A stretch of 64,000 nucleotides of DNA from Candidatus Collierbacteria bacterium GW2011_GWB2_45_17 (GTDB lineage: Bacteria > Patescibacteriota > Microgenomatia > UBA1400 > MFAQ01): the NCBI GenBank assembly GCA_001001485.1, contig LCKO01000001.1, positions 76,517-140,516 on the forward strand, read 5' to 3'. Positions 57,001 to 64,000 of the stretch are shown here, one piece after another (the first letter of the stretch is position 1; every line of letters begins with the position of its first letter). Made by a program: the position numbers.

Positions 57001-60000
57001 AACTTGAGCTAGAAAACGAAAAACTCAAGCACACCGATGCCGAGATTTCTGACCCCAATGCTTTATGAAATCTCTCTTTGCCAGGCTTTGGAAAGTTCTC
57101 AATTTTTCAAAAAAGATACAGATAGCAATTATGCATCTGTTCCAAGACAAATTTCTGGTTGGGGTAACCGGAATTATTTTTAACGATCAGAACGAAGTTC
57201 TCCTTTTTAAACATCTCTATCGCGCACACGCTTGGAGCTTACCCGGGGGATATTTGAAGGGTGGAGAACACCCCAAGGAGGGATTAGAGAGAGAAATAAA
57301 AGAAGAGTCGGGTTTGGTTGTCAGTGCCGACTCACCTCTCAAAACCCGCACCGACAGAGATGCGGCCAGACTTGACATGTGTTACACCGGGATCTTAATT
57401 GGCGGCGAGTTCACACCTTCTCACGAAGTGTCTGAGTTTGGTTTTTTTGCCCAAGATAAATTACCTCTTTTACGTAGCAACCAAGTTTTCCTTATCGACA
57501 CCGCTCTCCAAGAGCGCCGTCCAAAATTTATCTCCCATGAACTACTCTCAAATATCGAATGAATTTTCATCCAAATTTTTCGAGTTAGTTGAAAAGGCAA
57601 ACAAGATTGTAATCACCGCCCACGAATCTCCAGATGATGACTCCATAGGATCGGTACTGTCTATTTATGAGATTCTTATCACTAAATATCCAAGGAAAAA
57701 TATAAGAATCATCTATTCCAGCGAACCGGAACCTAGATTCAGCGTCTTCAAAAACTACAGCAAAATTGAGTTCGTCCCAGATTTAGCCGATGAAATTGGG
57801 AATACAGATTTGCTAGTTGTACTCGATGGAAGTCAATTTAGTCGATTTTCGAAGCAGCCCGAAAAACTAAAGATAATTCCCAAAAATATCTGTATTGATC
57901 ACCACGCATCACCAATTAATGAATTTTCATTGAGTCTGGTATCTCCAGACTATCCCTCTTGCACAGAAATAATTTATCTTGCTTTATGTCGCGACTTTGT
58001 AGTTAGTAGAGAACTTGCCGAAATTTTTCTTTTGGGAATACTTGGAGATACGGGTAACTTTACTTATTTAAAGCCTCATCAGACCGAAACACTAGCAACA
58101 GCCAAAAAGTTACTAGAGATTAGTAAAATCGAAATTCAAGAATTCCAGTCCAGATATAGAACAATCTCCAAGCGATCATTTGCCGTTATACAAGAGTTAA
58201 TGAAGAACACTTGTTATTTCTTCCGTGATTGGTTGGCCTGATTTTCAATATACTTATATCGAGAGGAAATTTGCGGAAGATGATAAATATACGGATAGTG
58301 AAATTAGTGAGGGGAATCACCTCTACATGTCAAACTATTTAAGAATGATTGAAGGACATACTTGGGGTTTTGTAATAACACCAAAAAATAACGGTGAATG
58401 TGGTATATCTGGAAGATCGTTACCAAAGAGTGTTAGTATAAGAGATTTAATGGAAAGAATGAAAATCGGAGGGGGACATGATAGGGCGGCTGGAGGAACG
58501 TTTAAAAACGAGAAAGATGTAAAAAACTGTATCAATGAAGTCATAGAATGGACCAAAAATAATAAACCTATAATACTATAAGTTTTGCTTTGAGGCTTAT
58601 GCCTCTGCGAAATCTCGTGTACCCCAACGGGAGCTCTGCGCGGCCTGTCCCTGTACTTCTGGAGCCACACTCGGCTCCCGCCCTTATCGTCATTGCGAGT
58701 TTCGGTACTCCGAACCGTAGCTCTCCTAGATACCCTTGCGGGTAAATCTCACTCCACCCTGTCATTCAGGGCTTGACATATCGGTCAAAGTGCCTGCTTC
58801 GCAGGCACAAAAGTGGAAACTATTGACAAGTTATCCATATGGGAGTATATTCCCATCTATTGCGCCATGGCGCAATGCTATGAACAAATTAATTTTTGCG
58901 ACGGGGAACCGGGCAAAGTTATTAGACGCTTCAAAAGCTCTATCTGAATTAGGGATAGAAATTATTGGGCAAAAAATAGAAATAGAGGAGATTCAAAGTT
59001 TAGATCAGGAAGAAATTATTATGAAAAAGGCCAAAAAAGCCTTTGAGATGGTCAACTTACCTCTTTTTGTAGACGACACGGGTTTTTATCTAGATTCGTA
59101 TCCACAGTTTCCAGGAACTCTCACCAAATACGTAAATAAGACTTTGGGAATAAATGGTCTTTCAAAGCTTTTTGAGGAGGGTCAGACAGCCCATTTCAAA
59201 ACCCTTCTTTGCTTGATAACTTCTGACACAGTAGTTATTGCTGAGGGGAAACTATCAGGTAAACTCACAAAAAAGATGTCTTCCAACTTCAATCCCGATA
59301 CTCCCATAAATAGTATTTTTGTTCCCGAAGGATACAACAAACCACTAATAGATCTCATCGAGAATTCCAACATAGGTAACCTCCATCGTACAAGGGCATT
59401 CGTCGATTTGGGTACAAAAATCAAAACATTACAAATTAATTTAATAAATGACTCCATCTGAAAAAGTTCTTAAAGACAACAGAGGCTATGTTAGTCAGTA
59501 TCCAAAAAACAAAAAGGTTGTCATGATTGTCTCTGGCGGTCTTGACTCAATAGCGACATCGGCAAGGCTAATGGAAGAATTTGATCTGGAAATCTTTCCT
59601 CTACATATACACAGGGGACAAACTAACACAAATGCTGAAAATAATGCTGTCAATTTTTTTACTGATTATTTTCAAAACAGGTATGGTAAAAATAAATTCC
59701 ATACTCCTCAGATGATATCTGTCAACGTGCCTCCTGTAGAATTTAAAAAGGATTTATTACCCTACACAAAGGTAAAAGGACATCCAATGAGAGATCCCAT
59801 AATGCACCTATTGGGAGTCGAATACGCCGTTGCAGTATCTCAGGCATCAGATGAGCCAGTAAAAACAATCTATTGTGCTATTGTTCCAGAAGATTATTTT
59901 CCTCATAGCTCTTTAGATGGTTTAAGAGCCAATACGGTGAATACCTGTATCAATATGGGTGATTGGGACTGGCAAATTTCTTCACCCAACATAGATCCTT

Positions 60001-63000: not shown

Positions 63001-64000
63001 AAACAGGTCAGATCGTTACATTCCCTCTTCAGCATGAAGATAGTGAGCAGATGTTGGCAATGATAGTTCTAACTGCCGATCCTGAAATCATTCTTACCAG
63101 AAGACTCGGGGACAAAAGTAGATCTGATCGATTTATGGACTTGGATGTTATCATTGAAGAACAAAGGATAGAGATCGAAACTGCAGAAGCCCAATCAAAA
63201 CAGCTCGACAGAGAACTAGTTATTGTAGACAATTCTCCAGAGGGACTATCTGTATACAAAGAAATCATCAACAAGGCATTTCCTGAAGGTAATCTTTCCT
63301 CTACTTTGGAAGCTGCTATCTTTGGATCGGGTGGAAAATTAGAAACAAACAGATAAACATATGTCAATTCTTGCAGATAACCAAGTCAAAGAGATGATCT
63401 CAGCAAAAATGCTGAATATTGATCCATTTTTTTCAGATTTCTTAGGACCTAACCTCTATTATTGCCATTTGGGAAATAAGTTTCTTGTACCAAAGAATGA
63501 AGTCAGGACTTTTGACCCTCTAACTATGGAGTCCAAAGACATTTTCGAATCAGTTGAGACTAACCTGCCTATCACCATAAAAACCCAAGGCTTTCTACTA
63601 GCTGAAACATTTGAATATTTTGGCGTAGATGACAAGCATGTTGTAAAACTCATGAACTCAAGTTCTTTGGCTCGTTGCGGAATTTCCCATGCTGCCATAG
63701 GGATGATTAACGCTGGTTGTGGTATGGAGAAGCCCGTTAAGTTAACTCTTGAACTCGTTAATAACGCACCTTTTGATGTTATCCTTACACCCACCTCAAT
63801 TGACGAAAATAAAAAAATTATCTGGGGAACTGAAGTCTTGAAAATTGCTGTTGAAACAATGAGTTTTAAACCTGATTCCTCTTATGATAAGTGGAGATTC
63901 GCTGCGTACAACAAAGACCAAAAACCCAGTGGTTCGAAAATGAAAAATCGCTTTGAATCGGGAAAGGAATTTATTGTTCCAACAAACTCCCTATACAACA

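Follow-up and report, generated by a model that had tools for sequence, protein, structure and literature searches.

Which reaction is served by QueC-family enzymes that are encoded side by side with a thymidylate synthase (TS)-fold protein and a nucleotide kinase? The question is raised by a stretch of 64,000 nucleotides, hereafter the window, from the genome of Candidatus Collierbacteria bacterium GW2011_GWB2_45_17 (contig LCKO01000001.1, positions 76,517 to 140,516), whose 3' end carries an operon of seven co-directional genes (58880-64005, + strand) for, successively, a Ham1/RdgB-family pyrophosphatase, a first QueC-like enzyme (QueC-like-1), a HisC-like pyridoxal phosphate (PLP) enzyme, a TS-fold enzyme, a second QueC-like enzyme (QueC-like-2), a kinase and a dCTP-deaminase-like (DCD-like) protein. 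The reading that we favour, tentatively and at somewhat less than an even chance, is that the operon encodes a dedicated pathway which would remodel pyrimidine (deoxy)nucleotides at the level of the monophosphate into a non-canonical pyrimidine nucleotide. Full-text searches found no literature linking QueC-family genes with TS-like genes, and the words "thymidylate", "Ham1" and "dCTP" do not occur in the main text of the published sequence-similarity survey of PF06508.

Organization of the Operon

The first gene (58880..59461) encodes Ham1a, a nucleoside triphosphate (NTP) pyrophosphatase of the Ham1/RdgB family (193 aa; PF01725, 7.3e-24), whose start was taken from the gene calls on full contigs and which overlaps by 14 nt the gene for QueC-like-1 (59448..60224, 258 aa; PF06508, 1.5e-12), a PP-loop enzyme of the QueC family. 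The genes for the HisC-family PLP enzyme (60193..61266, 357 aa; PF00155, 7.6e-46), the MilA-like TS-fold enzyme of the short Asp type defined below (61295..61912, 205 aa; PF00303, 1.3e-13), the second QueC-family PP-loop enzyme QueC-like-2 (61909..62715, 268 aa; PF06508, 2.2e-11), the P-loop nucleotide kinase of the archaeal adenylate-kinase type (62718..63356, 212 aa; AAA_17, 1e-12) and the DCD-like protein (63361..64000, 214 aa; PF22769, 2.2e-16) follow on the same + strand. The window cuts off just the last codon and the stop codon of the DCD-like gene, whose full length is known from the full contigs. From QueC-like-1 on, the junctions measure -32, +28, -4, +2 and +4 nt, and all the parts of the operon are enzymes of 185-360 residues, which are considered soluble. 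The preliminary description of the locus had placed six genes here, and the open reading frame (ORF) listing, the translations and the profile searches agree with it on their coordinates and family affinities; the Ham1/RdgB gene comes first, so that the operon comprises seven genes, and the aminotransferase gene, correctly recognized, starts at 60193 and not at 60112.

The NCBIfam equivalog models with their curated cut-offs, used to judge family membership, show that every operon enzyme falls under the cut-off of its nearest equivalog. QueC-like-1 and QueC-like-2 reach 20.4 and 32.1 bits with the QueC model TIGR00364 (cut-off 150.3), the TS-fold protein 135.7 bits with the methanogen-type ThyA model TIGR03283 (cut-off 174.55) and 42.1 bits with TIGR03284 (cut-off 108.35), the HisC-like enzyme 236.7 bits with TIGR01141 (HisC, cut-off 276.55), the DCD-like protein 70.4 bits with TIGR02274 (Dcd, cut-off 92.8), Ham1a 112 bits with NF011396 (cut-off 203), and the kinase 54 bits with PRK04040 (archaeal adenylate kinase, cut-off 155). 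Such scores are expected of neofunctionalised paralogs.

Conservation of the Gene Set and Its Variants

The QueC-like family is small, with 77 clusters at 90% identity and, among 1.84 billion, 235 representatives at 50% identity with E<=1e-30. Some 45 loci were assembled from exact-protein look-ups, a scan of 185,579 species genomes (10 loci) and a metagenome scan (32 loci), their neighbourhoods being mapped with phmmer and the remaining ORFs clustered. Recurrent partners are the TS-like gene (32 loci), Ham1 (27), the P-loop kinase (18) and a PF05014 gene (17), followed by DCD (9), the HisC-like gene (8), nucleoside diphosphate kinase (NDK, 7) and NUDIX families (about 10). In 23 loci the TS-like gene lies on the same strand directly upstream of the QueC-like gene or overlaps it (gap of -65 to +28 nt). 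Conservation of the neighbourhood across genomes of the Candidate Phyla Radiation (CPR), a question raised with the preliminary description, extends to the DPANN archaea and to Candidatus Vecturithrix, the gene set being present in Collierbacteria, Woesebacteria, Uhrbacteria, Saccharibacteria, WWE3, Nanoarchaeota and Aenigmarchaeota as well as in Vecturithrix. Because the same gene set recurs across phyla, the arrangement is not due to chance. The core consists of Ham1, the TS-like and the QueC-like gene, usually accompanied by the kinase.

Depending on the lineage, this core is embedded in distinct arrangements. The Collierbacteria type (V1), shared by locus L054, runs Ham1-QueC1-aminotransferase-TS-QueC2-kinase-DCD, and an archaeal locus from Aenigmarchaeota (L055) reads kinase-DCD-TS (in fragments)-QueC-Ham1, without aminotransferase. 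In Woesebacteria and others (V2), a nucleoside deoxyribosyltransferase (NDT) gene precedes TS-QueC2-kinase, with Ham1b-QueC1 on the opposite strand. A third type (V3) consists of a pyruvate-kinase-like gene, Ham1, TS, QueC, four genes for unknown proteins and PfkB, and a fourth (V4), from Saccharibacteria and Nanoarchaeota, of NDK followed at some distance by QueC, a kinase resembling deoxynucleoside kinases (dNK) and Tmk, a GT1 glycosyltransferase, a PLP decarboxylase that passes the cut-off for histidine decarboxylase (362.6 bits as against 305), an HD protein, Ham1, TS and NDT. Vecturithrix has Ham1 and, further on, kinase-QueC1-TS-DCD-QueC2 and an S-adenosylmethionine (SAM) methyltransferase, and locus L020 has U32-QueC-AsnB-like-TS-Ham1 followed by radical-SAM genes. 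The accessory genes found elsewhere (NDK, NUDIX, HD, PfkB nucleoside-kinase-like, dNK/Tmk-like kinase, GT1 glycosyltransferase, PLP decarboxylase and SAM methyltransferase) all encode nucleotide-handling or tailoring enzymes. The aminotransferase and the DCD-like gene, treated as central parts in the preliminary description, turn out by locus comparison to be lineage-specific accessories outside the core: the HisC-like gene occurs in eight loci of the Collierbacteria type, in L054, and beside a truncated QueC-like gene in L053.

Two fusion proteins, QueC-like::Ham1 (P0296) and pyruvate-kinase-barrel::QueC-like (P0271), confirm that the QueC-like family is tied to nucleotide pyrophosphate chemistry. 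Together with the adjacency kept in CPR, DPANN and Vecturithrix, they uphold the earlier proposal of a functional tie between the QueC paralogs and the TS-fold enzyme, the kinase and RdgB/Ham1. Searches for phage members of the QueC-like family came back empty in IMG/VR and met in INPHARED nothing but distant canonical QueC at less than 29% identity. A phage or prophage origin was consequently rejected.

Several observations on the relatives stand apart. In L020 (3439-14633), the genes belong to a larger cluster with a U32-family protein, an AsnB-like glutamine amidotransferase and an AF_0155-family protein, which also holds three radical-SAM enzymes with an HMPTM zinc ribbon. The four conserved proteins of V3 (L042, 5757-11395; also L037, L041, L044 and L049), of about 286, 249, 621 and 721 aa, are encoded directly after the QueC-like gene and have no Pfam, NCBIfam or PHROG annotation beyond a marginal QatB match (249-aa protein, E 0.0055) and a marginal match to phrog_249 with no aligned stretch passing; a defence-like side line of the system may be represented by V3. 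Further out in the family, a branch of QueC-like proteins of about 410-465 aa (P0337, P0345, P0365 and P0371) is fused to a PqqD-type peptide-recognition domain, which suggests peptide-modifying QueC relatives, and P0356 carries a fused S24 peptidase domain. The Vecturithrix cluster (L014, 3005-4042 and downstream) lies near genes for an EVE-domain protein and an HATPase_c_3 protein. The EVE fold is linked to the binding of modified bases, and these neighbours hint at a DNA modification or defence setting.

The TS-Fold Enzyme

According to HMMER alignments to solved structures and to family alignments, the TS-fold protein of 205 aa retains the equivalents of E. coli Cys146 (the catalytic Cys, as already noted in the preliminary description), Arg166, Ser167, Asp169, Tyr94, His207 and Tyr209. 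Three positions are substituted: Asn177 by Asp, as in MilA and T4 dCMP hydroxymethylase, Leu143 by His, and Arg126 by Lys, the latter again as in MilA (aligned DSKR segment). Asp169 is invariant across the TS-like family. By the residue rules summarised in Lee et al. 2026 (PMC13326640), N177D denotes a cytosine substrate and D169N the flavin 5-hydroxylases, and where position 143 is not hydrophobic the product tends not to be methyl. In addition, the best match of the AlphaFold2 model (pLDDT 95.8) is MilA (TMq 0.87-0.88, root-mean-square deviation 2.7 A), canonical TS ranking after it. From these signatures the enzyme is predicted to transfer a one-carbon unit onto C5 of a cytosine nucleotide, and its product is probably hydroxymethyl, ahead of methyl. 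The DCD-like protein is thus unlikely to supply dUMP to the TS-like enzyme, as had been proposed, since the latter bears a cytosine-nucleotide signature.

The TS-like proteins of the related loci fall into three types, a short Asp type (window, Vecturithrix and L020), a short Asn type (V3) and a long Asn type (V2 and V4). At position 143, the short Asp type carries His, and both Asn types carry Tyr.

Two known identities were considered and rejected for the window enzyme. Canonical ThyA does not fit the Asp at position 177, the His at 143 and the scores below the cut-offs of the ThyA models. The flavin-dependent 5-hydroxy-dCMP synthases (RB69 gp48, HY126 AfhB) were set aside because Asp169 is kept, unlike in the 5-hydroxylase-type phage TS homologues, although the best sequence match, 9iqu, is an enzyme of that kind, with Asn at this position.

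The QueC-like Paralogs

The two paralogs are 37% identical. The family alignment bears out that both keep the SGGxDS loop and the C-terminal Cys cluster, the SGGLDS form of the PP-loop being invariant across the QueC-like family. Libby et al. 2026 (PMC13329287) define YxQxHxxE, VPxRN and YPDC as the substrate motifs of canonical QueC. The first and the last are absent here, RRxARAxxxEE and (D)DxFPHSS standing in their place, and the PxRN core of VPxRN is kept as GHPMRN. The replacement of base-binding residues by arginines would suit a phosphate-bearing substrate. At the C-terminus, QueC-like-1 has C-x11-C-x2-C-x2-C as against the canonical Zn motif C(x)8CxxCxxC, and alignment to Cap9 points to a Cys4 site in paralog 1 and a Cys3Asp site in paralog 2 (second Cys replaced by Asp); judged from these ligands, a Zn site is more likely than a [4Fe-4S] cluster. 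A [4Fe-4S] thiolase of the TtuA/LarE type had been considered, as just three C-terminal Cys are invariant, and was rejected when the Cap9 alignment showed that a four-ligand site is kept.

The profile of the QueC-like family matches Cap9 (9nto) at 1.6e-9 and canonical QueC (3bl5) at just 1e-3. Similarly, the best PDB matches of the AlphaFold model of QueC-like-2 (pLDDT 90.7) are Cap9, then QueC, then YcfA, the latter with TMq 0.43-0.48 at a sequence identity of 11-14%. An NCBIfam QatC match spans the C-terminal 46 residues of QueC-like-1 (32 bits, cut-off 280), and PADLOC gave weak single-gene matches alone, without any system-level match. A canonical QueC role in queuosine synthesis was rejected on the model scores, the missing substrate motifs and the missing pathway partners, no QueD, QueE, QueF or FolE gene occurring within 10 kb on either side of the operon in longer contigs; the doubt cast earlier on ordinary queuosine synthesis, from the lack of QueD, QueE and FolE nearby, was well founded.

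Orthologues of QueC-like-1 occur in V1 and V2, WWE3 and Vecturithrix, and QueC-like-2 is the paralog found directly behind the TS-like gene in most loci, with a 4-nt overlap in the window. The idea of one QueC-like enzyme per ring carbonyl was dropped, since the gene count does not follow the Asp or Asn type of the TS-like enzyme taken together with DCD, V3 and V4 being Asn-type systems with a single QueC-like gene.

The Kinase and the Other Partners

The kinase has its best PDB match in the archaeal adenylate kinase 1nks (6e-10) and matches no Tmk model in Pfam or NCBIfam; a dTMP kinase (Tmk) identity was rejected, since the protein matches archaeal adenylate kinase models alone.

The DCD-like protein keeps the deaminase Ser, Arg and Glu (E. 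coli S111, R115 and E138), NSSSLAR and TLEL being conserved. The Asp of the canonical I-D-P/A-G motif, which is present in three aligned PDB Dcd sequences and is, to our knowledge, universal in canonical Dcd, is replaced by an invariant Asn throughout the subfamily (GMIN[AP]GCG). The DCD-like gene co-occurs exclusively with the Asp-type TS-like enzyme. The HisC-like enzyme has the SFSKAFALAGARVG PLP-Lys motif, and no other his genes lie near its gene.

Beyond the 3' end of the window, longer public contigs with an identical kinase carry a second Ham1 gene on the minus strand, then a PF05014 gene of the nucleoside-deoxyribosyltransferase/DNPH1-like type. Its product comes closest to the 5-hydroxymethyl-dUMP N-hydrolase DNPH1/Rcl and has Asp where that enzyme has its catalytic Glu. 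Ham1 is found in nearly all related loci. Upstream, a NUDIX hydrolase (57065..57562, + strand; PF00293, 4.2e-13) is loosely associated with the operon; it belongs to a recurrent NUDIX family (fam12) found near the cluster in five loci, and we infer that it may be part of the pathway.

Proposed Pathway

The order of steps, the substrates and the product of the favoured remodelling pathway may be pictured as follows. A Ham1-type pyrophosphatase would produce the monophosphate from a (d)NTP, for which (d)CTP is the likeliest candidate. The Cys of the MilA-like TS-fold enzyme would attack C6 and place a folate-derived one-carbon unit onto C5 of the cytosine nucleotide, hydroxymethyl being likelier than methyl. 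The QueC-family enzymes would then use ATP to adenylate an oxygen on that nucleotide and swap it for nitrogen, from ammonia or an amine. The target would most plausibly be a ring lactam carbonyl, by analogy with GMP synthetase, TilS and the QueC-fold YcfA; alternatively, an amide could be formed on a C5-derived carboxylate, as with QueC and Cap9, or the 5-hydroxymethyl group could be activated. The adenylate-kinase-like kinase, with an NDK encoded elsewhere, would re-phosphorylate the product, and the DCD-like protein could deaminate (modified) dCTP to the corresponding dUTP-type nucleotide, which would explain why it is paired with the cytosine-type TS-like enzyme alone. The second Ham1, the NUDIX hydrolase and the DNPH1-like N-glycosidase may purge or recycle intermediates, and the HisC-like PLP enzyme may provide a tailoring or amine-supplying step specific to Collierbacteria.

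Within this pathway, the QueC-like enzymes would most likely adenylate a ring carbonyl (C4 or C2) and then aminate it or substitute it with an amine, a reaction to which we give somewhat less than an even chance. It is favoured because YcfA provides a precedent, because the cluster contains no carboxylate-making enzyme, and because arginines stand in place of the base-binding residues. As to the fate of the end product, we lean towards its entry into the triphosphate pool, and hence into nucleic acid, rather than its excretion. A bolder extension, which we regard as improbable, would have some CPR and DPANN organisms make a hypermodified pyrimidine dNTP and put it into their own genomic DNA, as a 5-(hydroxy)methyl-pyrimidine aminated or amine-substituted by the QueC-family enzymes, with Ham1, NUDIX and the DNPH1-like enzyme purging the canonical counterpart.

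A number of points weigh against the proposed pathway. The cluster lacks an enzyme to provide the carboxylate that QueC-type chemistry needs, and no PP-loop enzyme is known to aminate a free pyrimidine nucleotide at C4 or C2. The DNPH1-like N-glycosidase would destroy an intermediate of the 5-hydroxymethyl-dUMP type. No DNA-acting enzyme (polymerase, glycosylase or transglycosylase) is consistently linked to the clusters, and the phage collections gave no homologue. Ribo and deoxy signals are mixed in the TS-fold enzyme, with Lys at 126 as in MilA and Ser167 as in the dCMP enzymes, and the number of QueC-like genes (1 or 2) follows no simple pattern with the predicted TS-like base type. Finally, the operon is surrounded by housekeeping genes, and a purely canonical interconversion role is plausible given the dependence of CPR and DPANN organisms on salvage.

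Comparison with Known Systems

The phage pathways of base replacement offer the same general logic. In the pre-replicative pathway of T4, the gp56 dCTPase, the gp42 dCMP hydroxymethylase and the gp1 kinase act together, and RB69 and DLP3 have a 5-hydroxy-dCMP pathway. The QueC-linked clusters share with such systems the logic of an NTP pyrophosphatase, followed by a TS-fold C5 enzyme with N177D and by a dedicated dNMP kinase and NDK, a glycosyltransferase being added in one variant. The window operon differs from them in its cellular, chromosomal setting, in the use of Ham1 instead of a dCTPase of the MazG/gp56 type, and in the addition of the QueC-family enzymes. The likeness to phage thymidine hypermodification that had been pointed out holds for this general logic and does not extend to the components, neither phage QueC-like homologues nor, among the Pfam-annotated cluster genes, any homologues of 5-HMUDK or aGPT-Pplase having been found.

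The MilA/MilB pair of mildiomycin synthesis and the BcmA/BcmB pair of bacimethrin synthesis combine a CMP 5-hydroxymethylase with a hydroxymethyl-CMP N-glycosidase, the latter standing where the T4/RB69 logic has a kinase. The window TS-fold enzyme resembles MilA by the Asp at the Asn177 position, by the Lys at the Arg126 position and as its best structural match, and a PF05014-family gene likewise lies near the operon. In contrast, the window enzyme is about 110 residues shorter than MilA, has His at position 143 (Asp in MilA) and keeps Ser167 (Ala in MilA), and the nearby PF05014 protein differs from MilB in being nearest to DNPH1, with its catalytic Glu changed to Asp. Unlike the window operon, the MilA/MilB and BcmA/BcmB pathways lack a QueC-family enzyme, Ham1 and a nucleoside monophosphate (NMP) kinase, and their hosts are actinomycetes or clostridia instead of CPR and DPANN organisms.

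In 6-thioguanine synthesis (YcfA/YcfC, Tgs), a QueC-fold adenine-nucleotide alpha-hydrolase (AANH) adenylates the ring lactam carbonyl of a free nucleotide: YcfA acts on the C6 lactam carbonyl of free GTP, then adds a nucleophile, and is encoded beside a PLP enzyme and NUDIX hydrolases (PMC12494993, PMC7994395). The window QueC-like enzymes are also encoded beside a PLP enzyme and NTP pyrophosphatases, and YcfA is among the top fold matches of QueC-like-2. The two systems differ in that the substrate of YcfA is a purine, that its PLP partner is a cysteine-desulfurase-like C-S lyase and not a HisC-family enzyme, and that no TS-fold enzyme accompanies it.

With QueC, Cap9 and QatC, the window paralogs share the SGGxDS loop, the overall fold, a putative Cys-rich metal site at the C-terminus, and the HPMRN and FPHS motifs at equivalent places, and are set apart from them by the absence of YxQxHxxE and YPDC, by TIGR00364 and QatC scores far below the cut-offs, and by an operon devoid of QueD, QueE, QatA/B/D or partners resembling tRNA-guanine transglycosylase (TGT). 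The operon partners of Cap9, CD-NTase and the TGT-like Cap10, are absent as well. Compared with a set of Dcd, ThyA and Tmk, the operon brings the same three folds together and its proteins keep the TS catalytic Cys and the Dcd Ser, Arg and Glu, but its TS-like enzyme has Asp for Asn177, its DCD-like protein has Asn for the Asp of IDPG, and its kinase is adenylate-kinase-like.

Alternative Explanations

An unlikely explanation, and the most probable of the rivals, is a salvage hub in ultra-small symbionts, handling canonical nucleotides only and interconverting scavenged pyrimidine deoxynucleotides (C to and from U, then T). Ham1 would replace a dUTPase or dCTPase, the TS-like enzyme would give the methyl group, the DCD-like protein would deaminate, the kinase and NDK would re-phosphorylate, and the QueC-like enzymes would be ATP-dependent aminases for U to C (or dTMP to 5-methyl-dCMP, or a purine) replacing steps of the CTP synthase type. 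The distribution, nearly confined to CPR and DPANN lineages, the housekeeping genes around the operon and the ordinary salvage families among the recurrent partners (Ham1, NDK, NUDIX, PfkB of the nucleoside/ribose-1-phosphate kinase type, NDT-like, adenylate-kinase-like and DCD) all speak in its favour, and the TS-like and QueC-like enzymes could share dUMP as a substrate rather than work in series. However, the window TS-like enzyme has the cytosine-type Asp and not the dUMP-type Asn, the family is rare even in CPR (the 10 loci among 185,579 species genomes came from a pattern scan), and canonical interconversion leaves the HisC-like, histidine-decarboxylase-like, GT1 and SAM methyltransferase enzymes without a role. 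The two or three Ham1 paralogs per cluster also resemble a partitioning of specificities.

It is quite unlikely that the product is a free base or nucleoside excreted as an antimetabolite or signal, in the manner of mildiomycin (MilA/MilB/MilC), bacimethrin (BcmA-D) or 6-thioguanine (YcfA-C, Tgs). The TS-like enzyme would hydroxymethylate (d)CMP, the PF05014 N-glycosidase would free the base, and the QueC-like, PLP, glycosyltransferase or methyltransferase enzymes would tailor it. With MilA as the best TS-like match and a PF05014 protein nearest DNPH1/Rcl, the locus does mirror the MilA/MilB pair; GT1 in the Saccharibacteria/Nanoarchaeota variant and the SAM methyltransferase in Vecturithrix could serve as tailoring enzymes, and genes for a QueC-fold AANH enzyme, a PLP enzyme and NUDIX hydrolases stand together in the operons for 6-thioguanine. 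On the other hand, the NMP kinase, NDK and pyruvate-kinase-like genes point to triphosphates, no exporter is linked to the clusters, the N-glycosidase is absent from V3, Vecturithrix and Uhrbacteria and carries Asp for its catalytic Glu, and genomes as small as about 1 Mb seldom encode secondary metabolism.

Conjugation of a nucleobase to a protein or peptide, possibly in defence as with Cap9 (type IV CBASS) and QatC, would require the QueC-like enzymes to join a carboxylate derived from a nucleobase to an amine of a protein, with the nucleobase itself provided by the products of the other genes. Cap9 is indeed the closest solved relative by sequence profile and fold, QueC-like-1 has a weak QatC similarity at its C-terminus, one of the four uncharacterised V3 proteins has the marginal QatB match and the more distant relatives are fused to PqqD-type domains. 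The window operon, by contrast, holds no gene for a candidate target protein, a TGT-like protein, QatA/B/D or CD-NTase, no enzyme of the cluster would make a carboxylated base, the context is housekeeping, and PADLOC found no matching system; this explanation is very improbable.

A mundane set of Dcd, archaeal-type ThyA and dTMP kinase next to QueC genes for the synthesis or salvage of queuosine or 7-deazaguanine, the alternative kept in the preliminary description, agrees with the automatic annotations (QueC, thymidylate synthase and dCTP deaminase) and with the TGT and QueA genes a few kb downstream in one strain variant, but is hardly credible and largely refuted by the QueC scores, motifs and missing partners given above, by the TS-like/QueC-like adjacency and the QueC-like::Ham1 fusion kept across phyla, by the MilA-like TS enzyme with its Asp at Asn177 and by a kinase of the archaeal adenylate-kinase type, not Tmk.

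Promoter Region and Genomic Surroundings

The operon is preceded by a sigma-70-like promoter, TTGACA-17-TATATT (58823..58851, + strand), with 11/12 consensus matches, whose -35 and -10 hexamers are kept in an alignment of the related loci L023, L024 and L045. The -10 hexamer is followed, ahead of the start codon of Ham1, by a perfect 18-nt palindrome, ATTGCGCCATGGCGCAAT (58859..58876, + strand), which is complete in L001 and L045 and matches in the aligned parts of L023 and L024. Promoter and palindrome are kept in relatives whose cluster proteins have clearly diverged. The palindrome is a candidate operator of an unknown regulator or may form a hairpin in the 5' untranslated region. A riboswitch in the 300-nt leader was rejected, this stretch giving no Rfam match even at E<=5.

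Immediately upstream, a GC-rich intergenic element of about 200 nt (58585-58800) folds more stably than its shuffled controls, whichever strand is taken (z -2.6 and -3.1). L001 and L022 carry an identical copy, but the more distant relatives lack it in front of the operon; in the window it occurs once, and it has no match in Rfam. A small RNA that has escaped annotation is one possible identity, a relic of a mobile element another. Next to it (57399-58581), DHH and DHHA1 domains of the NrnA-like type are distributed over two overlapping ORFs, also in contigs L002-L005, and form a single 347-aa gene in L001; the split is a frameshift or pseudogene common to one strain lineage.

Downstream of the operon, the strain variant L002 carries TGT and QueA genes at a distance of 4-7 kb (15612-18321), L001 having different genes at this place. 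Since no preQ1 pathway of the QueC/D/E/F type lies nearby, these two genes imply salvage of a queuosine precursor. Elsewhere in the window, the region 28001-36000 has a G+C content of 0.32-0.37, compared with about 0.43 in the rest, together with changes in GC skew, and may be a horizontally acquired island. The sole Rfam matches in the window are a bacterial class A RNase P RNA (4012-4316, - strand, 105.5 bits) and one tRNA gene (37097-37169, - strand).

Significance

Modification of pyrimidines centred on a TS-fold enzyme is already known. What is new is its coupling to the QueC family, the partnership with Ham1 and an adenylate-kinase-like enzyme, and the chromosomal setting in CPR and DPANN organisms. 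If the proposed pathway is correct, the QueC scaffold would gain a third job, pyrimidine nucleotide chemistry together with a TS-fold enzyme, after 7-deazaguanine synthesis and the conjugation of nucleobases to proteins in defence. A type of modified-pyrimidine pathway so far reported from phages and antibiotic producers would then also have a chromosomal home in symbiotic bacteria and archaea of ultra-small size, and, should the modified nucleotide enter genomic DNA, the system would represent a cellular equivalent of phage base replacement through a new reaction of the QueC family on pyrimidine nucleotides. The nucleotide economy of ultra-small symbionts is poorly understood, and either outcome would be new to it, be it a non-canonical base in cellular DNA or RNA, or an ATP-dependent amination of pyrimidines for salvage that is independent of CTP synthase.

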